Below are positions 3,111-36,909 of a DNA stretch of 64,000 nucleotides, piece after piece (position 1 is the first letter of the stretch; every line of letters starts with the position of its first letter). The DNA is from Nemertoderma westbladi. Its lineage: Eukaryota > Animalia > Xenacoelomorpha. The position numbers and the translations under genes are program-made. The notes beneath the pieces were generated by a model. That model saw only the letters and a program-made list of their open reading frames with translations. It was not told where the DNA came from and searched no databases. The stretch spans positions 1-64,000 of the forward strand of contig JAUCBJ010000042.1 of the NCBI GenBank assembly GCA_032718475.1, in the 5' to 3' direction.

Positions 3111-3464
3111 GATCAGGCTTACACGCCTTCTGTTCAATACTGGCCTACAAACAAATAAAACTGACAGAAATAGGCCTAAGTAAAATCCCAATAAAACCAG
3201 GCGTCCCCGATTAATTATTAAGACCTACCGGCATATATAATCAAATCGAATAATACTGCTGTACTTATACGGAAGTACCGGTTAGGACAGTTAGGCCTAC
3301 GGACTTACAGAAGTACCGGTTCTGGCAGTTGGACCTACGGGCCTACGGCAGTACCGGTTCTGGCAGTTGGGCCTACTGACCTACAGATGTACCTTCCAGG
3401 TTTACCGGTTGACCGGTACTTTCAACTTTATTGCTTACTGCAATAAAGAAGCTATATCCTTTAA

Positions 3465-4693
3465 TGTTCGCGCTTTCAGACCTTTGGCAGTTTAACCCAC
3501 CAAATTAAGATGTCTTCTAGATATTAAATCGGTTTTTAGTCTATGACAAGTATTTGATTCACTACACTAGTCGAAACCAATCTGTGCGCGATCATTCACC
3601 CGCTGGATATTCCCGGGAGATTGGGTTCGACGGTTTAATTTTATTGCTATGTAAGCCTAATGTATTATTCGACTGACAGTACTATATAATCTCTGACAAT
3701 ATTATTCACCTTCGGTAATATTAACAGTTCCTTTAGGACGTGGCGCTTTATCTATATAAACAGAGTTATGACTTAAACTACTCACAACGATATGGCTTTA
3801 ATTATAATTCACATATATGGCGCATTCTTTAGGAATTGCTTCTTTAACAGACTCACTCATACACAATGCTGCACAATACTGCACACTAATCTGCCAATCT
3901 TCACTGATTTTAGTCACATATAAAAGGAACACAGACTGACTCATGTAGGGTCTATCAAATAACATTAGATTCACTTCAAACCACTTTAACATAAGTCACA
4001 ATCGTTTATCTGTAACCCTTCTCTCTTACCTTCGGTATATCAAGAATATTGGGTTTCGGGGTTATTTATCGTTATTCCAAATATAATTATTCATCAACCA
4101 TATTATGAAGAACTGACGGTAAATAGCAGTATAAAACAACAATGAAAACACTGATTGTTATGAGTTTGCAATGTTTCAGCAGTCAGCATGTATGATCAGT
4201 CAGCAGAGTCGTTAGGTTAAAGGATATATGTCCTTGTAATTAAACCTACTAGTGTAAGACTAAAAACAGTAAAGCACAAAATACTTCCAAGCCGTTCTTT
4301 CTTTGGCTCAGGACTGAATGTAAACACTGCACATAGGCATTGCGTCATTTCTCGGAAATTTTCTGTACAAGGAGCCACAAAAACGCTCTAATTGGCTGAC
4401 TGAACTGAGAGACGCCGTAGAACAAAGGAAATCAACACGTATGAATGTCAGCTGTTAACCGTAGTCATAGTAACTACTGTTCAAGAGTAGCTATCACCCC
4501 TTTGCGTCACGAATTGCCATAGAATCATAAAATATGCCTTTCACAGTACACATACGGAGGAAATAGGTCTTAGATCCTCTAAAAACACCGATACAGCAAT
4601 AATACGGTCTCTTACACTTATTAAATCAACTACAGAGTATTTTAATGTAAAAGATAATAAAAATAACGGGGCAATTCAGCAAAGGCTTTTACA
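3465..4693 (-). repeat. 5' LTR of E1 (~1229 bp, TGT...ACA termini)
   Basis: Minus strand begins TGTAAAAGCCTTTGC and ends GTCTGAAAGCGCGAACA, homologous to the LTRs at 33863 and 45853. Confidence 0.9.
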
Positions 4694-6026
4694 GAAGATG
4701 AAACACAACCTGTTGAGGACCGGACCTTGTCGGGACCGGTGGCTTTGTTTGGGGACAGTTTATTCCTTAGTACGTTGAGAACGTTTTCCTCAGTAAAGTG
4801 TATTTCCGAAAGACTGAAACCATTTGGGTGATCTATGCTGTAGGTTGAGTAACTCCATAATAAATGGTAAAATTAGCGGAAGAAATTTCGTTAAATAGAT
4901 TAGCTTTATCAGAGTCTTATGTAATTACACTGCCAGGTTGCTGTCTTTCATGAATGGGATAGGGGATCGGCGAACAAGATAACATTTTGCATAATTCCAG
5001 AACTGTTTCGAGTTGCGGTTTATCAGAACTTGGTCGCCATATTTCTGATTACGAGATTGAATTCTTTCATTTAGGTTTCTTTGTAATGCTTCAAGTTTGT
5101 CCTTAAGCTAAGTGCTACGTAATGGGTCAGATGTCAGAAGAGTTCTTGTGGGGCGAGACACGTAGTCGGCGAGCCTTTGCATACGGTTCATATAGGGCAA
5201 ATGGGGCATGTCCGTCTGTCTGTCTGTCCGTCTGTCTGTCTGTCCGTCTGTCTGGTAAATGTTTGAACGCGAATTTCTCGGCATCGCTCGTTCGGAATTG
5301 AACCAAACTTAGTAGGTAAGTAGTAGAGAGAAAGTTTAGAAAGTTTGTAAAGTTTGGTGAAAAATCATGCAGTCTGACGTCAGCTACGACAGATTATGTG
5401 GTTTTTAGAAAATGTTAAATTTCTCGGGAAGGCCTCATTTTCCTGAGCTGAAATTTTGGTGGCCTGTAGAGAATCATGAAGTCTATCTTTTACGAAATTG
5501 AAAAGTTAAGACATTTAATTGGGGATCCGCTAGAGACTCAGAAGTAATGACATAGGCCTACCGGTACGGTACTGCTGTACAGTGCTGCACTGGTAAGTAC
5601 GAAATTGCAGAATAACAATTTGACACCACCTAGCGGATTAACATATGATTGTATATCGAATGAATACATCTATAGCATGGGATATGGGGTCCAAACTAGA
5701 CATGCCCCATTTGCTCTATATGAACCGTATGCCAAGGCTTGCCGACTACGTGCTGCGCGAAGTCCCCACGAACGTGTTCTTACGTTTACTTCTAATTCTG
5801 TTGATATTGATATATCTTTTCTGGCGCTGTGATTCTAAATCTAAACGTGGTTTCTTACGCGATTTTTTTTTGGAACGTAATCATCTTGAGGGAATTAAGA
5901 ATGAACGTCAAAGACTTCAAATTAGTTTCAGCTCTGAAATTGGCTAGAAGAAGACAGAAAGGGCATTGATATAAATAAGTTGAGGGTAAGTGATACAGTT
6001 AGATTTCTCGAAATTACGAAGATTAC
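4694..6026 (-). mobile_element. CR1-clade LINE fragment (ORF2 linker), interrupted by a HINE-like insertion and by the E1 LTR
   Basis: Near-identical to 12877-13579. Minus-strand motifs NSKQFWNY, DSDKANLFNE and PNKATGPDKV are typical of the CR1 ORF2 region between endonuclease and RT. Confidence 0.7.
5148..5775 (+). mobile_element. Non-autonomous HINE/DINE-1-like (Helentron-associated) or MITE element
   Basis: Absent from the sister copy (empty site AGTTCTTGTTCTTACG at 13321-13336). Has imperfect ~65-bp (sub)terminal inverted repeats (CACGTAGTCGGC...CATATAG(G/A)GCAAATGGGGCATGTC) and a (GTCY)n microsatellite right after the left repeat. The junction can be read as a T|T insertion without TSD. 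Confidence 0.7.
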
Positions 6027-6605
6027 ATATTGAAACTTCTAACTTCGATTATCATTATTATTATTTCTTTTTCTTTATCTTTATTATCTCTTTTCGCCGG
6101 AACAATTCGGTTTTGTACCAGGTAAGTCTACAGTACATTAATGGAAATATTCAGCATGATAATCGAGCCTTTGCGACTTACGCATTTTCGGAGATAGCAA
6201 TACAGTATATTTCACTCTCTCAAATTTGGAGGAGGTTGACAAAATCAAGTCGAGATTTGTTAAACGTACAGTATGTTATGTTTACACAAGACTACATATA
6301 AACCACGGCCTTAAAGTCTATCGGCGACAAGTAATTCGTGGAAGACCTCTTCAATAAACACCCCTAATGTTTAACACTGAAGCTATTAACGCTTACAAGG
6401 AACATAGATCTGAACGATTGGAAAATTTCACCAACCGGGAATATGAACTTGGTCCTGCGGTCACAATGTTCTTCTTGGAAAGGTGTGAGGCAACATAACC
6501 GACATGTTGTGACCCGCACAACGGCGCACGGTTGGCATCATCGCTTCTGTGCACCTTATCATGATCGCTCTAATTTGTGTTTTTTTAAATTCTGTGGGTC
6601 TAATA

Positions 6606-7593
6606 CGGTGGCTGATTGCGGCCAATTATTTCCATTTTTTAATGTTTTTCACCCGGGTGAATAACGTTTATCACCCGGGTGAAAAACGTTTATCACCCGG
6701 GTGAAAAATATTTATCACCCGGGTGAAAAACATGTAGTTAGTTTCCTTATAAATAATATTTTCATAGATCATTTTGATCCAGATTCACTCTTAGCGAATT
6801 AATATCTCTACCAATGTTAATGACCAATTAAGGGAAAGGATCATGTTACAGTGGTATGTTATTCTAACAAAAACAATAAACGAAAGTCAATAGTTCTAAA
6901 TAGTTCGTCAGTCAATAGTTCGAAAGTCAAACATTTAAATATTTTTCGTTGTGATACTGTAAATGTTTTTCACTCGGGTTATAAATGCTTTTCACCAGGG
7001 TTATAAATGTATTTATATTTGATTGTAATTTATTGTATCTGTGGTCTGTGCAACTCTAGCTCATCAGTCATCCATCACTACCGAACCTGCCCGAGTCTAC
7101 CGAACTTTGAGACACCCTTACGTTGCGCACTCTTCCTTTTAGATCTATAATTATAACTTTAGCTTACACGAATTCTAGGCGACGCTAAAGTTTTGTCTAC
7201 TGTTACCTTTAGATTTTATTATATTACTGTCCCTGATTTAATTTTAGAAATCTAGTTAGTTGGTTTTAATTAATTGGTTAATGTGTATATTATACTTTTT
7301 GCCTTGTAAAACTTCCGATGGATTTGGAAATTAAACACCTGCCGATTTCATAAATGTATTTAACCCGGGTGATAAAAGTTTTTCAGCCGGTTGATAAATG
7401 TTTTTGACCCGGGTAGTAAATGGTTTTGACCCGGGTAGTAAATGTTTTTCACCCGGGTGATAAATGTTTTCACCTGGGTGATAAATATGGTTTTCACCCG
7501 TGTGATAAATGTTATCACCCGGGTGATAAATATTTTTCACCCGGGTGAAAAATAATTTAATAAATGGAAATAATTGGCCGCAATCAGCCACCG
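6606..7593. mobile_element. TA-flanked MITE with ~32-bp TIRs and subterminal arrays of the palindrome TTCACCCGGGTGAA
   Basis: TA-CGGTGGCTGATTGCGGCCAATTATTTCCATTT at 6604 and its reverse complement ending CCG-TA at 7595. ~21-23-bp CCCGGG-centred repeats at both ends. Confidence 0.85.
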
Positions 7594-10563
7594 TAGTTTA
7601 ACGTAGAAAACTTTTTACCACATAATATCTTGTCCATCTTGCCCTCGACTGTTTATCCACTATAGAATAATCCCCACTGAGCTTACTTTTAATTTATTAA
7701 CAATACTCTTTTAAATTTTATTGTTTTAATGTGACACTACTATATATATATTTTAACATCCGTAATTTTATTGAATCATTGATAATAATTATTAAATTTG
7801 CCCTGTTAAGGGTGTGTCTTCAAAAAAAAATATGTGTGACATTTCCTCAATTTTCAATAAATTTATCTGGAATTCCATATAGAGGCAGTCCAGCGTAGGT
7901 CAGTACAGTAGGTAGGCATACTTAATGATTATAACATTAACTTTCACTTTAATATACGATTTTCCGTATGGTATATACATACATGTAAATAAATTACACC
8001 CCATAATATTGAATTATGTATACTGTAATAGTACACTGTGTAGAAAATAATAATAATAACGGAGATCTTATGCTATTTAATTCCTATTAGAATATAAATA
8101 TCGAATCCTATAGAGATATACAGTATGTATAAAACACAGTATATCGCATAAATGGTATTAATTTCTATATTGTGCTGCATACAAGGGTAAGTATGTAAGT
8201 TTGTTCAGTCATGCAATTATTTCTTTCTTATAACCCGCACAGATACAACTTGTTTATTGTTTTGATTAGATTCAGCCCTTCTTTAACCTGGGTTTTTATT
8301 GAAAACCGTATTCTTCACAGTGTGGGTAAAATATAATGTGAAATATAACAGCAGAAAGTCCGATATAGGCCTACTTCACAAGCCCCCGACGACAGCAGCT
8401 GCAGAAGGAAAAGCATGGAACCGAAACATGCACATATTTTTTTAATAGACATACAGTATACTACTGTCACTGTGTGATATTTTTTTACATCGCTACCGGC
8501 TACAGAGGAGCATGTTACAAGAAAAGTAATCTAATGCTTAACCATGCCAGCCTGTTTCGTTCGACAGCTTTTGCTACAGTATTAAGTAAATTGTATTATA
8601 AACTGTATGTGGATAGCCAGTAACCGCCAAGCAACGTAACCTTCCAATGTAATCTAACCGCTGTGGGAGAGTCATTTTTTTTCAAGTATTGCCGTACGTG
8701 ACCTTTAAATTATTGGTAGTGTATTACAGTATAATCTTATTGCGGGGTTAAAGATAGCTCATTATCATGAATAATTTACACATTTATTTTATAAGAGCCA
8801 AGTAGAGTTTATAAGAACACAAGGTTTTTTCATATTCGTTTAGAAATTATGACGAAGAGTTAATTAATATTTTTATTAACAACATAAGGACAACATTAAC
8901 CAACATAAGGAGTCCGTACAAGGACATGGAATCCTCGGTTTTTCCTTATTATACATGTTCGCCAGTCCAATATATTATTGTGATAAGGAGCATATGTCAG
9001 CTATCTCAATTCAATATATTGAGATAGCGTACATGAATACTAACAATAATAATAAATAATAATAATAACATATGTTTTTATTTCATAAAAACAATAGCAA
9101 TAAAAATACAATAACATCACGTGTAATAGTTCGTGTACTCAATAAAAATATATTAATGGCCTCAGCCATATGCCCGCGAGGCACCACAGAATGCAATATA
9201 TAAGGTATGTCATACTACTTACTGTACATAAATTAATTTAATGTAAGATAAAATATAAGTGTAATTAGTAGTTCCTGTGAGATATAAATGACTACATACG
9301 TTGGCATAGAGGATAGTTCAAATAAATTAACCAACTGCAATATATCAATCAACTGTAGTTCTGATCGTGAACAATGTACATAGACGTTTTCCACGAACCC
9401 TTGCAATATTGTAGTAAATAAAAAGAAATTAATGAGGTTCTACAGTCCCAATCCCAATAAACATTAACTTGGTCATTTTGGCGGCCAAAACGACCAAAAT
9501 GGCCAAATATAAATTGCGGCATTCATGAAAGGAACTTCTGAGGCAAGTTGGCTTGTCAATCACAGCCAGTGAATAGAGGCTGAGTGTAAGTAAAGCCCAG
9601 GATGTTGGCAGATAGAAAAAGGCTTCGATTTCCGGACATTCCCTCCCCAACCCCCCCCCCCCCCCCCCCCCCCGGACTGTTCCGTACTGTTTTATATTTC
9701 GCACGTTTATTTTTCATTTTGTAAGGTAAACGGACCGCTTGTATCCAGACAAGTTGTACAGTATCCAATTTCCCTTTCTTAGCTCAGAAATTTATATTTT
9801 GCATCCCGATTTTACATTTTGTATCCACGTTTTATTTATGGATTTCATCAATTCAATTACACTGTATTGTTTGCTAATCTTTAAACAATTAATTAGATGA
9901 CCTATATATTCCATCCCCCGAATGATATATTGTTTTGTTTACTAGAGTTATAATAATTATGTAATAGTTTTAATTATGAGTATTATTATCTAATTATTTT
10001 CTTCAAATTGAAGCAGATGGGGTTGACTATTATTGATGGTCCTTTTTCGAAGAAATCCTACATGGGCATTTTGGAGCTAACCCGCCACTACTACTGCTTG
10101 GCTCACTGGAAGTGTATTTAGGTAAAGCTCTATTGTAAGGCTGTGGCTCTGTTTAAGCTTAGCTGAGCCAAGACGACAGACATTAGGATGGGAACACGAA
10201 CACACCATATTATCCTTCCCCTATTCATTTCAATGGTAGCCTGCTTGTCTTTCCCGCACTGGGGGGAGACCATTGCCATTGGTTAGCTGTATGCTATTGT
10301 AATACAAAGAGAGCGGCAGGATAAAGAGAAATGCCGACCTCACTAATAATGGGCTGGTCCCACAGGTCACTTTAAGGTAGGTGGTAAAGTAGGTACGTAC
10401 AGTTTACATGTTCAAGGGCGCCAGTCCCTAGTCGCTAGCCCATAGTCTGTCATGGAGTTCCTGTAGTAGTTTCAGACGCTTTCACTCAGTATCCTAGTGT
10501 CCAGGAAGTTGGGAGTTGAGTGTGGGTGGGTGGATTGGTGGCCCCCACGCAACACCGCAGTGT

Positions 10564-10968
10564 CGGGTGACTACAAAACAAAGACCAACGACCCAAATAA
10601 TAAAGACCTGTACAAATACAAAACACATGTGTTAACTTTCGTTTATTGTTTTGGTTCCCCAACACGCCTCTGTAACCTGCTTCTTTACTAACCTGCTCCT
10701 TTAAATGGCAATGTGACCTCACGCTCTCTGGCAATGGGACCTAAAGCTCTTTGGAACCTAACGCTCTTTGGGACGTAACGCGACTTTACCTCTTTGTTTT
10801 GTACAGGTCACAATGAGCGTTATGTACCATTGCTATTTAAAGGAGCAGGTTAGTAAAGGAGCAAGTTACAGAGGCGTGACGGGGGGATTCAAAACAATTA
10901 ACGAAAGTTAACACATGTAACAAGATTATGCAGGTCTTTATAATTGGGTCTTTGTTTTGTAGTCACCC
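10564..10968. mobile_element. Foldback/MITE element with ~150-bp imperfect inverted arms, nested in the 9443-11556 element
   Basis: GGGTGACTACAAAACAAAGACC...CCTGCTCCTTTAAATGGCAATG pairs with CATTGCTATTTAAAGGAGCAGG...GGTCTTTGTTTTGTAGTCACCC. A partial related copy lies at ~16885-16960. Confidence 0.75.
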
Positions 10969-11044
10969 CGCAGTGTCCGCGAATTATACATTGTGAAAAA
11001 ATATTAAAAAAAAATTTTATTATAAAAAAAAATATTATTGAAAT

Positions 11045-11212
11045 TAATTTCCGAAATTAACATCCCGAAATTAATTTATGGACGTCCATTAATTAGTTAT
11101 TTCATTACGATTCTGATTGGTTTATAGATTATTTTCGGGACGTCCATAAGTTAATTTCGGGACGTCCATATAGTTAATTTCGGGACGTCCATAAATTAAT
11201 TTCGGGACGTCT
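11045..11212. repeat. Short direct/inverted array of TTAATTTCGGGACGTCCATA units
   Basis: About 5 copies are visible, plus inverted CCGAAATTAA copies. Confidence 0.7.
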
Positions 11213-11559
11213 CAGATTATTATACGATACTCCTCCTTTAACGAAGCTCCATTCAACTCCTTTTATACGACTGTGTACTCTATCAATGCCTCAGTGGGCG
11301 GACTCCAGTACTGCAAGGCTCAGCGCCGGGTAAGTTAACAATCTGTCAATAATAAAAATGAAAGCGAGCCGACATTTAGTCAGATCCACCAAATGGATGG
11401 CCAAGGAGACAGACTGTCTGGATTGAGCTGATTCGAGTTAAATCGCTTCGCCAAAACGACCAAGTAGCCCATAGGAATACACTACATTTTTTTTGGTGAT
11501 TTTGGTCATTTTGGCCGCCAAAACGACCAAGTTAATGTTTATTGGGATTGGGACTGTAA

Positions 11560-13579
11560 ATATGTTAGTAGTGGAAGATATGTTCCAGATATTTATAAAA
11601 ACGCACAGAAAAATGATTTTGTTTTGAGTGACCTCTTGCGCTGCGATTTTGATACAGACTAAAAATTTCTTTTGTGTTGTTTTAATCGTAATTATTTTGG
11701 GCATTTCAGTTAGGTCGGCTTTAATTCTACGAATTTCCAGTGGTTCTTCATTTAAATGTAACAAGCGATCGCTATATGAATAATTTTTCATACCAGGTAA
11801 ATGTCTAACGAAATCTCTTTGAACTCGTTCTAAAATGTTGATGTCACGATCAATAGAAGGATTCCATATTGGAGAGTTGAATTCCAGAATAGGTCATGCA
11901 AAAACTTTGAATAAATTGATTTGAAAATTTGCCGAAAGCTTGCCGTATTTGAAAACATATCTTTCTGGCCTTACCTGAAATAATTTGAATGTGTTCGCTG
12001 AACCGTAAGTCGTCTGATACTTCAATGCCGAGGTTCGCGACCGGAAGGTTTATTCTCAATGGTGACGCTGTTCATAGTGTACGAAGGAATACGATCTGAT
12101 CAAGGAGATTGCAAGGAGACAACATGACATTTCTTAATATTAAAATATAGTTGCCATGTCGCTGACCATGTACATATAGTGTCGATGTCGAATTGCAAGA
12201 CCTGCTCGTCACTGGCTGTAAGGATTCCTCTGTAAAGTTTGGTGTCATCTGCAGAAGCTTAATACTGGTCCCTGGTGTATGCAATCGCAAATATTTGAAC
12301 AGGATGAATAGCAGTGGCGATATATCACTTCCCTGCGGTACCCCACTGGTTACCGAAATTGCAGATGATAACTTGTCATTGATTTTTGTCCGTTGGGTGC
12401 GACCAGAGATAAGAAGGATTCCAACCATACTAGAAGATTACCGTCGATCCCATAGCTTTTGAGTTTGCAGATAAGTTTGGGATGGGAAACTCGATCAAAA
12501 GCGCGTTTAAAATCGGTGTACAGGATATCAACTGGTTTACCCAAGTTTCTTATTCTCACCCATTCCGTCTAACATCCCAACAGCTGGGTTAATGTAGATT
12601 TGTTCCTGAGAAACCCATGCTGGTTTTTGGTTATAGCTCCCATAGATATTAAGTAGTCCAGTAGCTGGTCACGGATTATAGATTCAATTGTTTTCACCGA
12701 AGTGACGTTAGTGATATTCCACGGTAGTTTAGGCCATCCGAGCTTGATCCAGCAAGTTTGTAGAATGGAATAACGTTGGATATAATGGAGGATATATAAA
12801 ATAAATATATAATAATGGAGGAACGGTTCTCGTGTCAAAGAATTGTCGGGATAATAGTCGCCCAAGGGGAGCAGCGAAGATGAAACACAACCTGTTGAGG
12901 ACCGGACCTTGTCGGGACCGGTGGCTTTGTTTGGGGACAGTTTCCTTAGTACGTGGAGAACGTTTTCCTCAGTAAAGTGTATTTCCGAAAGACTGAAACC
13001 GTTTGGGTGATCTATACTGTAGGTTTGAGTAGCTCCATCATCAATGGTAAAATTAGCGGAAGAAATTTCGTTAAATAGATTAGCTTTATCAGAGTCTTAT
13101 GTAATTACACTGCCAAGTTGCTGTCTTTCATGAATGGGATAGGGGATCGGCGAACAAGATAACATTTTGCATAATTCCAGAACTGTTTCGAGTTGCGGTT
13201 TATCAGAACTTGGTCGTCATATTTCTGATTACGAGATTGAATTCTTTCATTTAGGTTTCTTTGTAATGCTTCAAGTTTGTCCTTAAGCTAAGTGCTACGT
13301 AATGGGTCAGATGTCAGAAGAGTTCTTGTTCTTACGTTTACTTCTAATTCTGTTGATATTGATATATCTTTTCTGGCGCTGTGATTCTAAATCTAAACGT
13401 GGTTTCTTACGCGATTTTTTTTTGGAACGTAATCATCTTGAGGGATTTAAGAATGAACGTCAAAGACTTCAAATTAGTTTCAGCACTGAAATTGACTAGA
13501 AGAAGACAGAAAGGGCATTGATATAAATAAGTTGAGGGTAAGTGATACAGTTAGATTTCTCGGAACTACGAAGATTACA
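11560..13579 (-). pseudogene. Decayed CR1-clade LINE ORF2 (linker, RT, C-terminus)
   Basis: Frameshifted pieces: NQHGFLRNKSTLTQLL, VDILYTDFKRAFDRVSHPKL, SGVPQGSDISPLLF, YSDRLLHLNEEPLEIRRIKADL. Confidence 0.85.
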
Positions 13580-16526: not shown

Positions 16527-16570
16527 TTAATTTGTGTTACCGAGCTTAAAAGCTCGGTAACACAAATTAA
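16527..16570. repeat. Perfect hairpin, 21-bp arms, 2-nt loop
   Basis: TTAATTTGTGTTACCGAGCTT-AA-AAGCTCGGTAACACAAATTAA. Confidence 0.95.
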
Positions 16571-16572
16571 AT

Positions 16573-16828
16573 CAACAACTGGTAAAGATATGCACGACAA
16601 ACTGAAAGTAGTTAACACTGATTTAACACAAGGCACAAAATCTAATTAGATAAAATCACAAATTGAATTTTAAAATAATAAGCAGATAAGTATGAGGTTT
16701 TAACCTCATACTTATCTGCTTATTATTTTAAAATTCAATTTGTGATTTTATCTAATTAGATTTTGTGCCTTGTGTTAAATCAGTGTTAACTACTTTCAGT
16801 TTGTCGTGCATATCTTTACCAGTTGTTG
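16573..16828. repeat. Long palindrome, 127-bp arms, 2-nt spacer
   Basis: CAACAACTGGTAAAG...TATGAGGTT-TT-AACCTCATA...CTTTACCAGTTGTTG; no mismatch seen between the arms. Confidence 0.95.
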
Positions 16829-17121
16829 TTTCGTTCCTATACTACAGTACTATATTAGTCCTCAGTGAATAATCTCAATCTCAAGGAGTAGGTTACAGAG
16901 GCGAGTTGGGGGAACCAAAACAATACACGAATGTTAAAACTTGTTACATGATTATGAACACCATATAAAAGTCCTGGGGTGTCGTTATAATGCAGTAGTG
17001 CCCCATCACTGTAGCATGTTGTGTTGATATACCTGTATACTGTAATAAATAATACCGGTACTGTGTAATATATAATATGACAGAATATTTATAGAATACT
17101 TAATAACCCAGCAGCCCAGTA

Positions 17122-20100
17122 ATGGATTCCACCAACCCTTTCAACTGCCAAGTATCCTCGCCTGAACCGGCCGATTCGGGGTCTTCCCAATGGAGTTTAG
17201 ACGAGGCCGCAAAGTCTCTGTATAAACTTGAAGGTCACCATGTCTCTCGTTCAGCCGACTTTACCTTCATAGCGGAGGCTCTTCTCAAACACAACCTCCC
17301 ACTGAGCGCCTTGGAGTTCTACTCCGAGGTTTTGGAGTCCACTGGCTGCGAGATTCCGTCGTTGAGTCGGTATTTCTCGAATCCCGCCAACTTCGAACGA
17401 ATTTGTTTAGTCCCTCCATCGAGTGGGGGCCTCCAACGGACACCGAGTCGCTCCACCATCGACTCACTCGAACTCGCCTGCCACTCGGACGACGGGATAG
17501 TCGGAGGGCGTTGCGACAAGGACTCGGACGCTTCGCGCATCGCCGTTCTAGAATACGAGTTACGAGCCGCCAAGGAAACCATCAGGGAACTCCGGACTAA
17601 TATAACCCAGTCGACCATCGCTTCAGACGGATTCCCACCGGGCCTCATCTCGTCGTCCGGACAAGCTAGTCCGGAGCCGATAAACAATAACCAGGCAATA
17701 AAACCCATAGAAAGGCGATCTTTGAACTTCATTGTTAACGAATATTTGTTGAACAACGGGTATAAACTCACATCGAACACGTTCAGCGACGAGAACCCGG
17801 ACCAAGACCTCGAGGACTGGGACCGAGTCGGATTGAATCTACCGAAACCAATCGAGCTCACCTTCATCTACAACGAGTTCAACCGGCGCTCCCCGGCGGG
17901 TGTTGGGTGTACCGAGGTTGGGTGTCAATGGGAACCGGTGGGTGGTGTCGAGGTTGGGTGCCAGTGGGAGCCGCTAGGTGGTGTCGAGGTTGGGTGTCAG
18001 TGCGATACGGAATCAGTGGAGAGTTTGCGATCAACCGTGGATAGACTTACCAAACAAATAATTACATTACAGTCAGATAGAAACTCATTTATAACAGATA
18101 ATACCGGTACTCGTTTACTTTCAGTTTCAAATCATTTATCGCCTTCTGGGACCGTTGAGTTAGAGACAAAAAATAATAAATCTGAAGTTTCAATAAAATT
18201 AGAAGCAGAATCTTTCGATGTTATAGAAGTACAAAGGGTCGAAACTGAAACTATTAAAGTACAGGTTGTAACTGAAAGTTCGTCTGAACAGACGTCGGAT
18301 TCGCCGAATGACTCGGATGGGTTTAACTCGTCGTCGCCTCGACTCCCGGCGCGGGTGAACCCGTTCAACCGCTCCTCCCAGTTCCTCCCCTCGCTGATCC
18401 TCCGCCAGCGGGAACTGCTTCTCTCTACAGTGCAGACCGCGGACGTCGTCGTCGACGATGACGAGCTGTGGACTGCGGACGAATCCTCCCCGTTCGTCGA
18501 CCTCCTCGCCCAACGCCTCCCCAACATCGTACCCAACGTCCTCCTCGCGAAACGCGACCAACTCATCCCCCTCATCGTCTCCCTCGCCTGTCTGTCGGAC
18601 CGTCACCGCGACTCAATGCTCGGCCTCCTGTTCAACCTGATAAAGAAACCCGACGAAACCCAACGTCGTCTCATCCTGTCAGGGTGTCGGCTGTTCGCGG
18701 AACGCTCGGGGGCGGAACGCGTCGAGGCGGAACTCCTGCCCCAGTGCTGGGAGCAGATCGAGCACCGCCACTGGGAACGCCGACTCCTCGTCGCCGAATC
18801 CTGCGGATACCTCGCTAGGTTCGTCTCCTCCGCGACTCGCTCCTCGCTGCTCCTCTCCATGCTCTTCCAGATGGCGACGGATCGCTCCGAGGCAGTCCGA
18901 CGCGCCGTTGTACTCAACCTCGCGGTCGTAGTCGCAACCGACGACCTCCGCGACTCATCCGACAAACTCCCGCGGGTTTCGGACGCGCTGTACGCGGCGC
19001 TGTCGGATCCGTCGGAGGGAGTCGTAGACGCTGCACTCGGCGGCCTACTCCACGCCGTCGCTCTGTGGAGTCTCGTGGAGGGGGACCTCGTGGCCATGGC
19101 GACCGGGCTGCTAGACCGCGTCAACGCCAACCCTCCCGACGGACAGTCGGTCCTTCTCGTCGGCTTCGAGTCGCTCATCCCGTTGCTGTTGGTCAACGTC
19201 CTGGAATCCTTCGAGGAGGCCGACCCGGACGACTCGTCGCTCACTCACACGATGCGACTCCCCCCGACGGCCTCCCGACTCTCAGACGTTCAGCTAATGT
19301 TCGCCGGGGACTCGCGTCTGTTAGGCTCGCTACTAGGCGCCCTGGACGCCGCCCTAGGGGACCCCGAGGTCCCGCTGGGTCCCGTTCTCGAGCGGCTCAA
19401 CGCGCGGCTCGTACCGTCGTTAGTGACCGCCGTTTCCCGGACACCGCTCCCCGATTCCGGACGACTCTCCCGCCTGATCCTCTCGGTTTGTCGCCACTTC
19501 GGTCGCGGGTTCACTTCCCGCTGCCTCGCTCGCGAGTTCCGCGGACGAGTCGCGCTCCTCGAGGCCGTAGACACCCCCCAGCGGACCGTCTCAGAACTCA
19601 TTAACGGCTGTCTCTTCCCCGTCTTTGTCTCCGGGGTTCTGGTCGCCTTCCAAGGTGACGACGACCGCGACGAGCTCTGTAAGTTCCTCGAGGAATCCGT
19701 CGTTCTCTTCTCCCTCTGTAAATGTAAACCCACCAGTTTGTTTATGAGTTTCTCCTCGGTCGTCGCGGCTTCCCACGTCTACCACGACTCGCTAACCGAG
19801 GTCGTCTGGTCCTGTGTGGTCCACGCGAACCCCGCGGTAAAGACGACGACCTGCGGGGTTATCGATGAGCTTCTCCGATCGAGTTTATCCGAGGGTTTGA
19901 TCGGGAGTAAACTGGTCCCCGCGTTGGTCACACTGTCCACGGACCCCGACGCGTCGGTTCGCATCGCGACCGTCTCGTGTTTCGGCTCGCTGTTGGCTCG
20001 CTGCGCTCCCCACTCGGTCGTCGTCGAGAAGTCCCGCATGCAGTTCGACACGTTCCTGGACGAGGGACTGTCGCCCGACTCCAACTGGTCGATGTTGCTC

Positions 20101-20349
20101 GAGGTTGTCCGCGCGTTCTCGCGGGTTTACGGGGACGTAGACGCGGGATTCCGCGAGGAGTTTATCGTGCCGAAGTTGGCGGTGATCAGTTCGGCGACGG
20201 CGGCCTCCCACGGGGATCCTCCGGGCTACAGGGACACCGTTCTCCTCCTCTTCGAGGCCTACTCCGGGCTGTCCTGCGTCGGACTCAGTGAACGCGCTCA
20301 GACCGACGCCTTTCTATCTGGCCTCGTCTATCTACATCAGGCTATGCAG
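17122..20349 (+). CDS. RELCH: RELCH (RAB11-binding, LisH, coiled-coil and HEAT-repeat protein; KIAA1468), exon 1, 1076 codons
   Basis: N-terminal NPF, ALEFYSEVLE...YFSNPANFER, LisH-type ERRSLNFIVNEYLLNNGYKLTSNTFSDEN, LPNIVPNVLLAKRDQLIPLI and ELLPQCWEQIEHRHWERRLLVAESCG. Phase-0 donor CAG|GTAAAC at 20349/20350. Confidence 0.93.
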
Positions 20350-20572
20350 GTAAACAGATTCATCCCATACATATTATTTTTAATCTGATAATAGTGTCAT
20401 ATCTGTGTCTGTCTAACAATTGTATTTATTATTTATTTATGTTGTTAATCAGTAACAGATTTCAGCATCAAGCCCTGTTTGATCAGTTTCGGTAAAACTT
20501 GTTTACCTTAGAGGCTGGAATCGCGAGCCCAATACGTGTTGGCTGACTGACTGTCGTTATTGAACTGATTAC

Positions 20573-21289: not shown

Positions 21290-21320
21290 CGATTATTTAT
21301 AATTTTTTATATCTTAAAGA

Positions 21321-21326
21321 AATAAA
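21321..21326 (+). promoter_or_regulatory. Candidate polyadenylation signal of RELCH
   Basis: AATAAA ~30 nt after the stop codon. Confidence 0.5.
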
Positions 21327-28321: not shown

Positions 28322-28645
28322 ACCTCTTCTTTGTTCATTTTACAGTTCAAAAACTAAGAGATCTATACAATTTATTGTTAATTGTTTTTGCATTAGGCAT
28401 ACCAATACTGCAATGGCTGAATAAGTTCGTCTCAAAATAAAAATAATTATCAATGAGGAAGAAAGGATTTTAAACAATAATACGCGCCCATGTGGGTGGG
28501 TGCGAATGGGGGAAGGTGGATGGGAATGTAGGATGCTGGGAAGATGGAAAGGTGGGTGATGGGAAAGTCGGGAGGTGGATGGAAATGTGGGTTGGAATCT
28601 AGGATGCTGGGAAGATGGAAAGGTGGGTGATGGGAATGTCGGGAG

Positions 28646-29800
28646 TGTTCGCGCTTTCAGACCTTTAGCAGTTTAACCTGCCAAATTTAGATGTCTTCTA
28701 GATTATAAATCGACTTTAGCCTATGACGAGTATTTGATACACTACATTAGCCGAAGCCAGTCTATGCGCGACCATTCACCCGCTGGATATACCCGGGAGA
28801 CTGGATTCGGAAGCTTTGACCTTATTGCGGTGTAGGCCTACTGTATTATTCGACTGATCGTTAACATATAATTTCTGACAAATATTATTCACTTTCGGGA
28901 AATATTAACAGTTCCTTTAGGACGTGGCGCTCTAAATATGTAAACAGAGTTATGACTTACACTAGACACAACGGGATGGCTATGGATTCACGTATAAAGC
29001 GCATTCTTTAGGAGATGCTTTGTTATCAGTCACAATCATGCACACTACCGCACAATGCTGCACACCGATCTGCCGACCTTCACTAATTTTAGTCACATAT
29101 AAAGAGAACAACCACCGACTCATGTAGTGCCTATGAAATAGCATTAGATTCACTCCAAAACCACTTTAATGTAAGTCGCAATTGTTATATGTAACCGGTC
29201 TCTCTAACCTTCAGTATATCAAGAAGATTGGGGTTTTCTGATTATTTGTCGATATTATCCAAATATAACAAGATTCCATCAACTGATATAATTAATAACC
29301 GAATAAACCATAAATAGCAGTGAAATAATGCGGTGAAAGCATAATGCATATGTACTGAGTTGGTTTGATAACAGTTATACGTTTCTATGACCAAAGCCTA
29401 CTAATGTTTGGCTAAAGCCTGAAACACAGCAATTCCAAAGCCGGTCTTCTGGCTGTGGACAAAATACACATACTGACTCAATTCATGAGTTTCTGTATAC
29501 AATCTCCAACACAGAGTCAAAAAACGCTCTGATTGGTCGACCGAACAAAGAGAGAACAAAGAACAAAGAAATGTTACACGTGGACATATCAGCTGTTAGA
29601 TGTCGTCATGGTAACTACACTGTATCAAGAGGATTTTGGCTTATTGCGACATAAGATCGCTAGTTATGTCCGCTAAAGTACACAGCTAGTTATGTCCGCT
29701 AAGGCACACATACAGAAGAAATGGCTCTTTATATCCACTAAAACACCTACAGAGTACTTTGCGGGGAAAATAACTAGCTAGATCCGCAAAAGCCTTTACA
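28646..29800 (-). mobile_element. Solo LTR of the BEL/Pao family (1155 bp) with 5-bp TSD GGGAG
   Basis: GGGAG|TGTTCGCGCTTTCAGACC...GCAAAAGCCTTTACA|GGGAG; reverse complement of the E2 LTR. Confidence 0.95.
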
Positions 29801-31269
29801 GGGAGGTGGATGGGAATGTGGGAAGATGGAAGGAAAGGTGGGTGATAGGAATGTTGGGAGGTGGGTGGGAATGTGGGAAGATGGAAGGAAAGGTGGGTGA
29901 TAGGAATGTCGGGAGGTGGGTGGGAATGTGGGAAGATGGAAGGAAAGGTGGATGGGAATGTGGGAAGATAGATAGAAAGGTGGATGGGAATGTGGGAAGA
30001 TAGATAGAAAGGTGGATGGGAATGTGGGAAGATAGATAGAAAGGTGGATGGGAATGTGGGAAGATAGATAGAAAGGTGGATGGGAATGTGGGAAGATGGA
30101 TAGGAATGTGGGAAGATAGATTAAAGGTGGATGGGAATGTGGGAAGATGGAGAGGAATGTGGGAAGATAGATAGAAAGGTGGATGGGAATGTGGGAAGGT
30201 GGATGGGAATATGGGAAGATAGATAGAAAGGTGGATGGGAATGTGGGGAGATGGATAGGAATGTGGGAAGATAGATAGAAAGGTGGATGGGGATGTGGGA
30301 AGATGGATTGGAATGTGGGAAGATAGATAGAAAGGTGGATGGGAATGTGGGAAGATAGATAGAAAGGTGGATGGGAATGTGGGAAGATGAATAGGAATAT
30401 GGGAAGATAGATAGAAAGGTGGATGGGATGTGGGAAGATGGATAAGAATGTAGGAAGATATATAGAAAGGTGGATGGGAATGTGGGAAGATAGATAGAAA
30501 GGTGGATGGGAATGTGGGAAGATAGATAGAAAGGTGGATGGGAATGTGGGAAGATAGATAGAAAGGTGGATGGGGATGTGGGAAGATGGATAGGAATGTG
30601 AGAAGATAGATAGAAAGGTGGATGGCAATGTGGGAAGATAGATAGAAAGGTAGATGGGAATGTGGGAAGATAGATAGAAAGGTGGATATGGATATGGGAA
30701 GATGGATAGGAATGTGGGAAGATAGATAGAAAGGTGGATGGGAATGTGGGAAGATAGATAGAAAGGTGGATGGGAATGTGGGAAGATAGATATAAAGGTG
30801 GATGGGAATGTGGGAAGATGGTTAGGAATGTGGGAAGATGGATAGGAATGTGGGAAGATAGATAGAAAGGTGGATGGGAATGTGGGAATATAGATAGAAA
30901 GGTGGATGGGAATGTGGGAAGATGGATAGGAATGTGGGAAGATAGATAGAAAGGTGGATGGGAATGTCGGAAGATAGATAGAAATGTGGATGGGAATGTG
31001 GAAGGTGGATGGGGATGTGGGAAGATGGATAGGAATGTGAGAAGATAGATAGAAAGGTGGATGGCAATGTGGGAAGATAGATAGAAAGGTAGATGGGAAT
31101 GTGGGAAGATAGATAGAAAGGTGGATATGGATATGGGAAGATGGATATGAATGTGGGAAGATATATAGAAATGTGGATGGGAATGTGGGAAGATAGATAG
31201 AAAGAAGGTGGATGGGAATGTGGGAAGATAGATAGACAGGTGGATGGGAATGTGGGAAGATAGATAGAA

Positions 31270-32745
31270 ACTACTACTACTAGGATCGGCATGCTGCATT
31301 GCAGCTGCATTTTTAAGAATGCTGTGCCGGCTTGTCAACAAAATTACACCGCCACAACTCCCTATCACCCATGACATTTGCTAGATCATCCGCATCTTTA
31401 AGGCCAGTGTCCTTTAAGATGCGTCTCAAGAAAGTCATGGGCTGTCCACCATGCTTATTCACTCCATGAGGCTGCCAAAGTACAAGATTATGCACTGGCT
31501 GGTCCTCACGGCGAAAGCAATGTCCTGCAAAGCGGAGGCGATTTTGTTCTAGTGTCAAGCTTGGGGGAACCAATGAGACACCTCCAATGTTATATAGTGT
31601 CTGGTTGGTGATGTGTGCATTGTACTTGACACAATGTACCCGGCGTAGCATTCTTGTGAATGTGCCATCCAGAGATTTGGTGTCCTCAGCAGTTAGAGCC
31701 CAGCATGGACTCCCGTAGAGAAGTACTGGAACTACTGCTGCTCTAAATAATCGGACCTTAAGTTTCCGATTAATTCTAGGTGACTTCCAAATCCTGGAAA
31801 GCCTATTCAAGGCTGCCCATGCCTTTCCCTTACGTATTCGAAGGTCCTCACCTGACTTCCGGATCCATGATCCCAGGTAACAGAAGTCGTCCACATGCTC
31901 AAGCATACCATCCTTTGAGCTTATGCTCATCCGATCAGAGACTTGCTGAGGACTTTCAAAGTTAACTGTCAGAATTTTGGTCTTTCTGGAGTTAATAAAA
32001 AGACCAACACTAGAAGCAGCATGTTCTAATGAGCTGAGGAGCCGTTGGGCTCCCTCTAATGATTCTGAGAGTACTCCTAAGTCATCAGCAAAGTCTAGAT
32101 CAGTTAGGTACTTGGCAGGATTTCCTCTACTTCTGGAGCCAGTAGGTGGAGTTATCATCACCCCATCATCATTATGATGATCTAAGGACATGCGTAGAAC
32201 ATAGTCAACCACAATAATGAACAAGAATGGTGCAAGTGTGTCTCCTTGGAGGACGCCCCATAACACTTCAAATGGTTCTGTGTCACCGTCAACAGTAGAC
32301 ACAAATGTTGTCGAACCATCGTATACTGATCTGATTGCTGCAATAATTTCATCAGGAATCCCATATAATGAAAGTATGCTGAACATACGTGAGCGAGAGA
32401 CTGAATCAAAGGCCTTGAAGAAGTCAACAAAGATAACAGCCAGATGCCTGTCTTTCTTTTTTGATAACTCTTCAATTATCCTTCTAAGTGCCAAAATGGG
32501 CTCCATGGTCCCACGACCTTTACGGAACCCATTCTGATTTCCACGTAGCAGTCTCTCAATGGGATCCCTGATGCGATTTAATAGAATTATATTGCATAGT
32601 TTTGCAGCAATCGAGATCAATGAGATTCCCCGAAAAGAACCATAGAGTGTTAGGTTGCCCTTCTTGGGAACTGGCACCAACTTATTTGTTTTCATTTCTT
32701 GTGGGACTCTTGTTGTACGGTACATGTCTACTATGATGGGATAGA
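31270..32745 (-). mobile_element. 5'-truncated RTE-clade LINE inserted in the satellite
   Basis: Very short 3' UTR followed by a (TAG)n tail (ACTACTACTACT on +); uninterrupted RT ORF. Confidence 0.9.
31313..32725 (-). CDS. Non-LTR reverse transcriptase (RTE clade), 5'-truncated, no endonuclease
   Basis: FRGISLIS, NQNGFRKGR, FVDFFKAFDSV, GVLQGDTLAPFLF, DLDFADDL, FCYLGS. Confidence 0.9.
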   Translation of the reverse strand: MYRTTRVPQEMKTNKLVPVPKKGNLTLYGSFRGISLISIAAKLCNIILLNRIRDPIERLLRGNQNGFRKGRGTMEPILALRRIIEELSKKKDRHLAVIFVDFFKAFDSVSRSRMFSILSLYGIPDEIIAAIRSVYDGSTTFVSTVDGDTEPFEVLWGVLQGDTLAPFLFIIVVDYVLRMSLDHHNDDGVMITPPTGSRSRGNPAKYLTDLDFADDLGVLSESLEGAQRLLSSLEHAASSVGLFINSRKTKILTVNFESPQQVSDRMSISSKDGMLEHVDDFCYLGSWIRKSGEDLRIRKGKAWAALNRLSRIWKSPRINRKLKVRLFRAAVVPVLLYGSPCWALTAEDTKSLDGTFTRMLRRVHCVKYNAHITNQTLYNIGGVSLVPPSLTLEQNRLRFAGHCFRREDQPVHNLVLWQPHGVNKHGGQPMTFLRRILKDTGLKDADDLANVMGDRELWRCNFVDKPAQHS

Positions 32746-33862
32746 TGGGATAGATAGAAAGGTGGATGGGAATGTGGGAAGATAGATAGAAAGGTGGATG
32801 GGGATGTGGGAAGATGGATAGGAATGTGGGAAGATAGATAGAAAGATGGATAGGAATGTGAGAAGATAGATAGAAAGGTGGATGGGGATGTGGGAAGATG
32901 GATAGGAATGTGGGAAGATAGATAGAAAGGTGGATGGGAATGTGGGAAGATGAATAGGAATATGGGAAGATAGATAGAAAGGTGGATGGGAATGTGGGAA
33001 GATGAATAGGAATATGGGAAGATAGATAGAAAGGTGGATAGGAATGTGGGAAGATAGATAGAAAGGTGGATGGGATGTGGGAAGATAGATAGAAAGGTGG
33101 ATGGGGATGTGGGAAGATGGATAGGAATGTGGGAAGATAGATAGAAAGGTGGATGGGAATGTGGGAAGATGAATAGGAATATGGGAAGATAGATAGAAAG
33201 GTGGATAGTAATGTGGGAAGATAGATAGAAAGGTGGATGGGATGTGGGAAGATAGATATAAAGGTGGATGGGATGTGGGAAGATGGATAGGAATGTGGGA
33301 AGATAGATAGAAAGATGGATAGGAATGTGGGAAGATAGATAGAAAGGTGGATGGGGATGTGGGAAGATGGATAGGAATGTGGGAAGATAGATAGAAAGGT
33401 GGATGGGAATGTGGGAAGATGAATAGGAATATGGGAAGATAGATAGAAAGGTGGATAGGAATGTGGGAAGATAGATAGAAAGGTGGATGGGATGTGGGAA
33501 AGATAGAAAGGTGGATGGGAATGTGGGAAGATGAATAGGAATATGGGAAGATAGATAGAAAGGTGGATGGGATGTGGGAAGATAGATATAAAGGTGGATG
33601 GGATGTGGGAAGATTGATAGAAATGTGGGAAGATATATAGAAATGTGGATGGGAATGTGGGAAGATAGATAGAAAGGTGGATGGGGATGTGGGAAGATAG
33701 ATAGACAGGTGGATGGGAATGTGGGAAGATAGATAGAAAGGTGGATGGGGATGTGGGAAGATGGATAGGAATGTGGGAAGATAGATAGAAAGATGGATAG
33801 GAATGTGGGAAGATAGATAGAAAGGTGGATGGGGATGTGGGAAGATGGATAGGAATGTGGGA

Positions 33863-35037
33863 TGTAAAGGCTTTTGCGGAATTAGCTAGTTATTTTCCCC
33901 GCAAAGTACTCTGTAGTTGTTTTAACGGACATAAAAAGCCGTTTCCTTACTGTACCGGTGTTTTAGTGGACATAAAAAGCCATTTCTTCTGTATGTGTAC
34001 TTTAGCGGACATAACTAGCGATTTTATGTCGCAATAAGCCAAATACTCTAAACATCGGAACTAAGATGACGACATCTATCAGCTGTGTCCACGTGTAACT
34101 TTTTCTTTGTTCTTTGTTCGTTCTTTGTTCGGTCGACCAATCAGAACGGTTTTCACTCTGTGTTGGAGATTGTATGCAGAGGCTCACGCAATTCAGTCAG
34201 TGTGTGTATCTTTCTAAGCCCAGAACACCGGCTTAGGATTCTTCTGTACTTCTGTGGATGTTTCAGACTTTAGCCAAACATTAGTAGGCTTTGGTCATAG
34301 AAACGTATAACTGTTATCTAATCACATATCAAACCAAAACATATTGTCACATACTAACACCGCATTTTTACTGCTATTTACTGTCGGTTATTAATTATAT
34401 CAGTTGATGGAATATTATTATATTTGGATAATATCGATAAATAATCATGAAACCCCAATCTTCTTGATATACTGAAGGTAAGAGACAGGTTACATATAGC
34501 AATTGCGACTTACATTAAAGTGGTTTTGGAGTGAATCTAATGCTATTTCATAGGCACTACATGTGTCGGTTGTTGTTCTCTTTATATGTGACTAAAATTA
34601 GTGAAGGTCGGCAGATCAGTGTGCAGCATTGTGCGGTAGTGTGCATGATTGTGACAGATAACAAAGCATCTCCTAAAGAATGCGCTTTATACGTGAATCA
34701 ATAGCCATCCCGTTGTGTCTAGTGTAAGTCATAACTCTGTTTACATATTTAGAGCGCCACGTCCTAAAGGAACTGTTAATATTTCCCGATAGTGAATAAT
34801 ATTTGAAGAAATTATATATTAACAATCAGTCGAATAATACAGTAGGCCTACACCGCAATAAGGTCAAAGCTTCCGAATCCAGTCTCCCGGGTATATCCAG
34901 CGGGTGAATGGTCGCGCATAGACTGGCTTCGGCTAATGTAGTGTATCAAATACTCGTCATAGGCTAAAGTCGATTTATAATCTAGAAGACATCTAAATTT
35001 GGCAGGTTAAACTGCTAAAGGTCTGAAAGCGCGAACA
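33863..35037 (+). repeat. 5' LTR of E2
   Basis: TGTAAAGGCTTTTGCGG...GTCTGAAAGCGCGAACA. Confidence 0.97.
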
Positions 35038-35048
35038 ATAACAGTTAT
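35038..35048 (+). promoter_or_regulatory. Non-tRNA primer-binding-site position, complementary to LTR positions 34307-34317
   Basis: ATAACAGTTAT is the reverse complement of ATAACTGTTAT. The equivalent pair in E1 is 3453-3464 with 4217-4228. Confidence 0.7.
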
Positions 35049-36909
35049 GATTTCTTATTGCAGTGTAGGCAATAAATACAGTTTAATATTGTTCTGGTAA
35101 GAACAATAACAGTTATAGCTTCTGTATTGCAGTAGGCAATAAAGCTGAAGTACCGGTCAACCGGTACCCAGTAGGCCTAACTACCTAACCACCCGAACCG
35201 GTACTTACAGCAGTACAGGTACAGCAGTATTATTCGATTTGATAATTATATACCGGTAGGCCTTAATATTTAATCTGGGACGGCTGCCCTGGTTTTTTAT
35301 TGAGATTTTACTTATTTCTGTCAGTTTTATTTATTTGTAGGTTAATATTGAGCAGAAGACGTGTACGCCTGCTCAGATTGTACAGATAATTTGTAGGCTG
35401 GACTGTTGTCTGACTGTTGTTAAGTCTGAAGATATTGTAGTGTGTGTAGAGTGTATGTCCAATGAAGTACTAGTTAGGAACGTAGGGGCTTCCAGTGCTG
35501 TGAGGTAAATCCCCCTGAAAGAATAAGTCGTACTACTCGGTTAGAACACATACTAACTAACCATTTCAGAGTCTGCATATACTGTAGTTTGTTTAGGCTT
35601 GATAGTAGTCTGCCAGCGTTTGGTCTGTATTTTTGTATGTGTAGTCTGTACGGGTAGCGTAATATTTCTTATTTAGATAATTTGTAGGCTGGATTGATGT
35701 CTGGCTGTTGTTAGGTCTGAAGAGATTGCGGTGTGTGTAGAGTGTATGTCCGATAAAGTACTAGTTAGGAACGTAGGGGCTTCCAGTGCTGTGAGGTAAA
35801 TCCCCCTGAAAGAATAAGTCGTACTACTCGGTTAGAACGCATACTAACTAACCATTTCGGAGTCTGCATATACTGTAGTTTGTTTGGGCTTGATAGTAGT
35901 CTGCCAGCGTTTGGTCTGAATTTTGTTTGAGTAGTCTGTACGCATAGTGTAATATTTATTATTCAGAGTTTATGCGATTATTCGCAACATTCACAACCCC
36001 AAGTTTATTCCTACAGTAATTGTGCTTGTTGTACATACCGTTATAGTTAAATTAACCCCGGTACTACATCAGGGCTGCTTGGCATAGGTAAAGACTGGTG
36101 ATTTTGTGCCCCGGTCACTCCAGCAGATACCGTGGTTCTTTTAGCTGTACAAGTATTTCTAACTGCTGATTATTTGTTGTATAAGTACTTGTACCTAATT
36201 TAGGGTTTAGTGTACAGTGCTTTCCGAAGGTAATTAGTGTGTAGGCAGTATATTTGTGTTGTAAAGTGGTTAATAGGCACGTTGGTTCTGGTAGACTGCG
36301 GTAATTAACTTCTAGGTAGGAACACTCCGTGATACATAACGTAGTACTTATAGCGATTCGGCTATAAGTCGTCAGAAGGTGGTATTTTTTCTATCTGGAC
36401 AACGCAGTATATTTACTACTGCTTAGTTATTTTCAAATACCGTAGTATCCTGTCTGTTTGTAATAACCAGATATTCTAACCCTTTGTTAGGCTGGTTTGT
36501 AGACTTTTTGTAAAATTACCCTAAAAATTCGTACGTGTAATTTTTGTGTTTATTTAGAGATTGTAATCTCACCCCGAATTGTACGTAATTTGTAGTATTA
36601 AGTAACTTAGGTAAATTAGAATTATTTGTTTTAGTGTCCAACAAGTAGCACTTCACTGAGAGCGTACAGCTTCTGTGCAGTGACTCCTTCCCAGAAATAA
36701 TAACATTTATTTCAAATATTGACAAAACCCATTAAACGGGTATATATATATATTATAAATCAACTCAAACCGATTTATAAAATAGTAGGCCTGTCATACA
36801 ACAATTAGGTCTTAATATCAGTTGGACTACTGCTTAAATAACAGTAATAAAGTAAAGTAAAGTAACCAAGTAACCCCTAAAATTCAGAAATTCAATTATT
36901 CTAAAATAA

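Follow-up and report, generated by a model that had tools for sequence, protein, structure and literature searches.

How does a long terminal repeat (LTR) retrotransposon begin minus-strand DNA when no tRNA-type primer-binding site (PBS) follows its 5' LTR? The question is raised by two BEL/Pao elements, E1 and E2, in a 64,000-nt stretch of the Nemertoderma westbladi genome (contig JAUCBJ010000042.1 of assembly GCA_032718475.1, positions 1 to 64,000; hereafter the window). An initial annotation had noted that neither element carries a TGG-starting PBS after its 5' LTR and that the bases there are complementary to a short stretch of the element's own LTR, and it had proposed that the lineage primes itself without a tRNA. 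The bases after both LTRs bear out the first point, and the proposal itself emerges well supported as an interpretation. E1 and E2 probably prime their minus-strand DNA with a fragment of their own RNA, not with a tRNA. The observed basis for this reading comprises the LTR ends, the absence of TGG, a pairing of 11 to 12 nt, four changes that are mirrored, and a matching signature in distantly related Pao loci.

The reading depends on where the LTRs end. E2 is a recently inserted BEL/Pao element without reverse transcriptase (RT). Its 5' LTR (33863..35037, plus strand, 1175 nt, TG...CA) and its 3' LTR (45853..47028, plus strand, with a short purine tract just upstream) differ by 11 substitutions and one gap over 1176 columns (99% identical), and the element is flanked by a 5-bp target-site duplication (TSD), TGGGA, at 33858-33862 and 47029-47033. 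The E2 LTR ends are fixed by the 3' LTR, by this TSD, and by a solo LTR of the E2 subfamily with a TSD of its own (28646..29800, minus strand, TSD CTCCC). The 5' LTR of E1 (3465..4693, minus strand, 1229 nt, TG...CA) ends in CGAACA and is 82% identical to the E2 LTR across its 3' 680 nt; its end is placed by homology only, with 29 of the last 30 nt identical to E2, because the E1 3' LTR lies beyond the window. The long leader and gag start of E1 (1..3425, minus strand) are cut by the window edge and are 83-85% identical to E2 35040-38435. The family in the window is completed by L4, a 5'-truncated, inverted LTR of a sister subfamily that lies backwards inside E2 (40442..41265, minus strand).

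Directly after the E1 LTR, with zero spacer, stands the putative PBS TTAAAGGATATA (3453..3464, minus strand), which does not begin with TGG and is the exact reverse complement of 4228-4217, the candidate self-primer site within the same LTR (4217..4228, minus strand, LTR nt 466-477), giving 12 of 12 Watson-Crick pairs. In E2, ATAACAGTTATG (35038..35049, plus strand, the first of two copies) likewise abuts the LTR end, lacks TGG, and makes 11 Watson-Crick pairs and one G-U pair with the candidate self-primer site at 34306..34317 (plus strand, LTR nt 444-455). An exact complement arose in 9 of 20,000 dinucleotide-shuffled LTRs for the E1 12-mer and in 32 of 20,000 for the E2 11-mer; with offsets of 0-4 nt permitted, the counts were 14 and 81 of 20,000, respectively. 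Copies of the site are also found in the E2 3' LTR (46296-46307), the solo LTR (29379-29368), and L4 (41244-41233). In both elements the helix ends at the LTR border, which is the geometry that minus-strand priming would need, as had been proposed. A 9-nt LTR match to E1 leader nt 13-21 was rejected, being no better than other offsets and not kept in E2, and so was a splice-joint primer for E1 and E2, since no joint beats the contiguous match.

The two LTR sites are homologous by alignment, and their surroundings agree with the positional homology claimed for them. A TAGTAGG motif (34282..34288, plus strand, in E2) lies 17 nt upstream of the E2 site and 16 nt upstream of the E1 site; a CCAAT box common to E1, E2, and the solo LTR (34137..34141, plus strand) is 169 nt from the site in E2 and 167 nt in E1; and the site lies 720 nt from the LTR end in E2 and 752 nt in E1. 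Identity between E1 and E2 is only about 50-67% in the site region, compared with about 85% further 3'. The sites differ at 4 of 12 positions, and all four differences are mirrored in the post-LTR bases, as had been observed. Cross-pairing between the elements fails: it yields only 5-6 Watson-Crick pairs, at +0.9 and -0.6 kcal/mol compared with -11.6 and -11.9 for the elements' own pairings. By our own arithmetic, the chance of four mirrored differences is about 1/495 x 1/81 = 2.5e-5. These had been described as compensatory changes; the mirroring stands, but they need not be selected compensatory mutations. If the LTR site is the primer, no second mutation is needed, because in a standard LTR cycle plus-strand synthesis would copy it into the PBS each time, keeping site and PBS mirrored.

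A chance match or a local duplication artefact is a scarcely credible source of this pattern. It could draw on the shortness and A+T richness of the words and on the fact that the E2 11-mer is also, with one mismatch, a direct repeat of its LTR site. However, the E2 11-mer is nearly palindromic, a feature the initial annotation had not recorded, and its centre base agrees with the reverse-complement reading; the E1 12-mer is not palindromic and fits the inverted reading only. The shuffles largely refute chance, the homologous positions and four mirrored changes argue against it, and pairing in the relatives described below also beats shuffles. The E2 primer-site region is duplicated, likewise beyond what had been noted: a second copy (35106..35117, plus strand), in a 68-nt tandem duplication, pairs 12/12 with 34306-34317. 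The first copy would have set the E2 LTR end in the last cycle, because the E2 3' LTR ends at the border of that copy.

Could a host tRNA half or another small host RNA be the primer, with the LTR match secondary? The mature CCA end of a tRNA is excluded because there is no TGG. Half-tRNA priming does exist in Copia lineages (PMC6317226), and the profile of the International Committee on Taxonomy of Viruses (ICTV) describes Bel/Pao as tRNA primed (PMC8742986). Even so, a host primer is very unlikely. E1 and E2 differ at four positions, the LTR site could follow each host primer only by coincidence, 33800-35400 contains no Rfam family, and no tRNA gene is found in the window. Further leader variants add to this difficulty. 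We sought other family copies in assembled contigs of four of seven sequencing runs (X1, X3, X4, and X5), and the family is very large, with 9012 (X1) and 2606 (X3) contigs aligned over 33863-35230. E1-type leaders occur in X3 and X5, and contigs without the 68-nt unit are present in X3. Other leaders combine the first 11 nt of E2 with another 12th base (X1, X5), show a changed first base and one inserted base relative to E2 (X1, X4), lack the first base (X1), or carry three substitutions (X5). All six loose ends readable as leader starts (X1, X3, X4, X5) lack TGG, and they vary by substitutions and one-base indels, a variation that would not be accounted for by a single host RNA. Because the 12th base is free, the leader core is 11 nt. 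In the X1 and X3 contigs, cover is far higher 3' of about 34370 than 5' of it, with a local peak at 34261-34297 just upstream of the site and a variable U3. Contigs of X5 give no cover upstream of 34335, an absence to which we attach no weight. Exact-pattern scans for the family motifs gave no match in viral contigs or in metagenome contigs.

The assignment of E1 and E2 to BEL/Pao rests on protein ancestry. The E2 gag frame (38244..39833, plus strand, with a terminal stop codon) encodes DUF1759 (PF03564, E 8e-12) and zinc knuckles, and it is followed by a protease in fusion with a segment from beyond the RNase H region (41402..42763, plus strand), in Pao order. A search with the E2 gag returned 150 proteins; of the 15 long ones scanned for families, 14 contain Peptidase_A17 (the Pao family) and 14 contain DUF1759. 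DUF1759 gag, zinc knuckles, protease, the Pao-type region after RNase H, TG...CA LTRs in the 0.2-1.2 kb range, and a 5-bp TSD are all features that E2 has in common with the Belpaoviridae/Semotivirus (PMC8742986), and the solo LTR also has TG...CA ends and a short target duplication. E2 differs from them in that RT, the RNase H core, and integrase are absent from its pol (in E1 this part falls outside the window), and it therefore needs them in trans. It also differs, as does E1, in lacking the 18-nt PBS complementary to the 3' end of tRNA-Arg or tRNA-Gly that the ICTV gives for Bel/Pao, whose replication it calls poorly understood (PMC8742986). None of the 12 Pao loci described next has such a PBS either, and we read the tRNA-type PBS as a variable trait of BEL/Pao. 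A donor-like AG/GTAAGA at 34471-34483, in the conserved 3' part of the LTR, is kept in E1 and reads GTTAGA in the solo LTR and L4; it may serve as donor for a gag message in which the 2.4-kb leader is spliced across.

Is the signature confined to this family? Using an alignment of 15 Pao polyproteins as the query, we fetched 79 loci from metagenome contigs (from the best 80 of at least 557 confirmed). A direct repeat brackets the frame in 30 of the 79; in 12 of these the 5' LTR could be given a definite right end, and 18 were set aside. (For L041 the end was fixed by the contig end and the sister locus L076.) Each locus was scored for contiguous and GT-AG-spliced complements to its own LTR. 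None of the 12 loci has TGG, and all 12 pair over 10-15 nt with their own LTR at offsets of 0-4 nt. The pairing is contiguous in four, as in E1 and E2, and in the other eight it runs across the predicted joint of a GT-AG intron of 67-186 nt in the LTR. No shuffle of 200 reached the observed score for 8 of the 12 loci; for the other four, 2, 2, 4, and 10 of 200 did. The search demanded only GT...AG, yet a GTAAG donor is present in seven of the eight spliced loci and a CAG or TAG acceptor in all eight; these unasked motifs are the firmest check on the spliced matches. With E1 and E2 included, all 14 elements scored have a helix that terminates 0-4 nt from the LTR end.

Loci whose LTR ends were inferred or unknown were not counted. 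Eight with a known LTR start but an inferred end give spliced matches of 10-13 nt (six by script, two by eye), for which the only null comes from a blind scan (L003 1/20, L050 3/20, L051 2/20). In the blind scan of 55 loci without known LTR ends, contiguous matches were mostly local palindromes at null level. In L065, an upstream LTR piece (1-326) bears an acceptor where the 3' LTR (6694-7103) has a contiguous primer-like site, the copies being 88% identical; natural intron loss and an assembly chimera are both possible. L048 and L065, sisters in a quick tree, have a predicted spliced site and a contiguous site, respectively, and their primer-site differences are mirrored after the LTR (the L048 LTR end is inferred). 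L055 (1-15890) contains tandem Pao elements sharing LTRs, with 845-nt repeats that are 100% identical. The Pao alignment found no relative among viral contigs, and a word-based protein search of longer proteins scored none of 1435 candidates.

Several points weigh against self-priming or narrow its base, beginning with the fact that the case is drawn from sequence alone. Within the family, the covariation is that of E1 versus E2, because the LTR sites of the leader variants are not visible in the contigs, and the predicted mirror of a one-base site change in L4 is absent: L4-type ends carry the E2-type 11-mer, which leaves just a G-U pair at that base. Among the distant loci, the LTR of another element tied the score in 3 of 12 (L041, L076, and L079), L041 and L076 represent a single family, offsets of 0-4 were admitted in place of 0-3 once L044 and L079 had failed within the narrower range, and the metagenome contigs may be chimeric. 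In the quick tree, E2 gag sits on a branch of length 2.78 outside the clade of these loci. Clade profile scores for E2 are tied for gag (116.8/116.5), favour membership for protease plus connection (98 versus 49), and oppose it for the zinc-knuckle/protease piece (19 versus 31). With these signals divided, the loci show a trait widespread in BEL/Pao, not one origin. Whole-RNA folding is equivocal on the predicted helix: most E1 pairs reach probabilities of 0.83-1.0 for an RNA that begins at the site or 20 nt before it, but the helix probability falls to 0.01 with 100 nt upstream, and the pairing probability of the first E2 copy is 0.0 in all four folding settings.

The pairing might instead form a structural RNA helix, serving packaging, dimerization, or a translation switch, with priming achieved otherwise, such as by a protein or, in the manner of retrons, from a 2'-OH where the helix ends. 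A conserved stem-loop would suit such a role: in E1 it lies directly after the PBS (3426..3448, minus strand, predicted -10.4 kcal/mol), and it is kept in both E2 leader copies. So would the near-palindromic E2 11-mer and the CTAAC/CTAAT found downstream of the LTR site in E1 and E2, a motif that we take to resemble a branch point. However, CTAA is missing in the solo LTR and L4, the E1 12-mer lacks the palindromic character, and in all elements scored the helix ends at the place that fixes the start of minus-strand DNA. We consider this explanation unlikely.

If the LTR site is the primer, from which part of the transcript would it come? Both of the RNA ends had been put forward. A primer made by an RNA 3' end stopping at the site is disfavoured: neither E1 nor E2 has an AATAAA or ATTAAA a short way upstream of the site, and hexamers of this type follow it in both elements and in 9 of 11 relatives. 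The alternative of the RNA 5' end fared less clearly. Folding, as modelled, weakly points toward a start at the site, opposite to the positions of the promoter motifs, the CCAAT box described above and TATA boxes that precede the paired stretch by 122-167 nt in 3 of 11 relatives, which put the start upstream. Unlike the Tf1 primer, the site probably does not form the opening 11-12 nt of the RNA. Because CCAAT and TATA lie upstream and poly(A) hexamers downstream, the primer would probably be cut from inside the transcript, and the claim predicts exact RNA ends at 34317 (E2) and 4217 (E1).

In the mechanism we propose, transcription would start within the 5' LTR, probably between some tens of nucleotides and about 100 nt before the site, and the LTR site would anneal to the PBS. 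Cleavage at the 3' end of the site would leave a 3'-OH facing the last base of the LTR; if Tf1 is a guide, the cutter may be the RNase H of an RT supplied in trans. RT would then copy about 720-750 nt of LTR and jump to the 3' copy. In many relatives the primer would be formed by predicted splicing of an LTR intron, with E1 and E2 representing the contiguous form. A long 5' tail on the primer would be an obstacle when the second strand transfer takes place, one that another cut, or a primer acting in trans, would remove.

A primer in trans is itself an alternative that we hold possible, if doubtful. Here the element's own RNA would still prime, as a short LTR-only transcript (spliced in intron-bearing relatives), a second packaged RNA, or a 3' LTR copy, and the unspliced full-length RNA would be the template. 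Introns persist in the LTRs of 8 of the 12 relatives, and the copied template would therefore be unspliced while the primer is spliced, although a spliced 5' LTR and an unspliced 3' LTR on one RNA would explain intron retention equally well. The poly(A)-like hexamers inside the LTR downstream of the site, the retention of the site in the solo LTR, and weak cis folding over 720-750 nt agree with a trans primer; Tf1, however, acts in cis. This version differs from self-priming as set out above only in the molecule that supplies the primer, and part of our confidence in self-priming extends to it.

The closest known system is Tf1, whose PBS pairs with the initial 11 nt of the transcript; RNase H then cleaves just after them, between nt 11 and 12 (PMC7175516). 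Self-priming has been shown for Tf1 and proposed for Tj1 and the Tf1/sushi group (PMC4600332). Tf1 and Tf2 of Schizosaccharomyces pombe, Tj1 of S. japonicus, and the Tf1/sushi group of Ty3/gypsy share with E1 and E2 a PBS without TGG, an 11-nt complement in their own 5' LTR, and a predicted cut at its 3' end (PMC7175516, PMC4600332, PMC5341516). The stem-loop beside the PBS of E1 and E2 also recalls the U5-IR structure, which we know from a cited title alone. E1 and E2 would thus work like Tf1 self-priming outside the Tf1/sushi group. They belong to another superfamily, with Pao gag and pol pieces, relatives among Pao polyproteins, and no Ty3/gypsy chromovirus ancestry. In Tf1 the primer is the very start of the RNA; in E1 and E2 the promoter motifs point to a start before the site, a loop of 720-750 nt has to be spanned, and many relatives need a predicted splice. 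Self-priming has been demonstrated experimentally in Tf1 and is proposed from sequence in E1 and E2. The BEL-like element Cer7 of C. elegans is said to encode its own tRNA-like primer; reportedly this would be an internal tRNA mimic with a normal PBS, unlike a short stretch of the LTR.

Self-priming has further been predicted for the Copia TAR lineage (Houba, Osr-1) and the Tcn1 clade, by the rule that a stretch of 10 nt or more, beginning 0-5 nt downstream of the 5' LTR, be complementary to the LTR (PMC6317226). E1 and E2, without TGG, fit the same rule, and their zero spacer and the 0-4 nt of their relatives fall within the usual PBS position of 0-5 nt. The TAR and Tcn1 elements are plant Ty1/copia and Ty3/gypsy elements, and the available part of PMC6317226 describes no splice-joint primer. 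Dictyostelium Skipper elements have another non-tRNA site (PMC5006619), and PMC3587641 and PMC13524379 treat the PBS of Copia and Gypsy. In the accessible portions of PMC3118150, PMC554778, PMC9094657, and PMC8233318, we found nothing on BEL/Pao priming. The belief that self-priming is undescribed in BEL/Pao agrees with our literature search, which turned up no report of it or of splice-made primers in the superfamily; most subscription journals lay outside this search, and element tables, Repbase, or GyDB may already note such a PBS.

The window has several other features. L4 sits between two 525-bp copies of the E2 protease region that are 92.7% identical (39917-41790). On the right it ends in the exact LTR CA; on the left its boundary falls at a short microhomology, 21 nt upstream of the primer-like site. 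The insertion may record a template switch. We rejected L4 as captured strong-stop DNA, as it extends 21 nt beyond the 5' end of the site and fits neither a cut at the site nor a motif-based start. A broken extra reading frame between the E2 pol remnant and the 3' LTR (44401-45826) has no Pfam family at the curated cut-off, and it stands where an env-like or captured gene could lie. A single purine-rich satellite of 8/12/20/32-nt units (28495-33862 and 47029-56600) received the insertions of both E2 and the solo LTR, and the flank of the E1 5' LTR (4694-6027) and 12876-13579 are 97-98% identical copies of another repeat. An RT frame at 62886-63770 (RVT_1, E 2e-30) is not matched by long Pao proteins and is likely another retroelement. 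The window also holds an intronless 1093-aa frame with HEAT repeats (17107-20388) in a block of 60% G+C, and a near-perfect inverted repeat of 130 nt with a 2-nt spacer (16570-16831).

Taken beyond this family, we lean somewhat toward the view that a large part of BEL/Pao primes without tRNA, from an internal piece of the LTR transcript that is splice-assembled in many families; E1 and E2 would be an intron-less, very high-copy form, and the PBS would be retemplated every cycle. BEL/Pao is one of the main LTR superfamilies of animals, to which it is described as restricted (PMC3601003), and its ICTV profile assumes tRNA priming (PMC8742986). If self-priming holds, BEL/Pao would be the third superfamily to use it, after Ty3/gypsy, where it is shown, and Ty1/copia, where it is predicted. 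This would bear on whether self-priming or tRNA priming arose first, a matter on which hairpin priming has been proposed as ancestral (PMC3601003). Annotation that requires a tRNA PBS would overlook such elements, and they would escape control by tRNA fragments. A splice-built primer would, moreover, link reverse transcription to host RNA processing.

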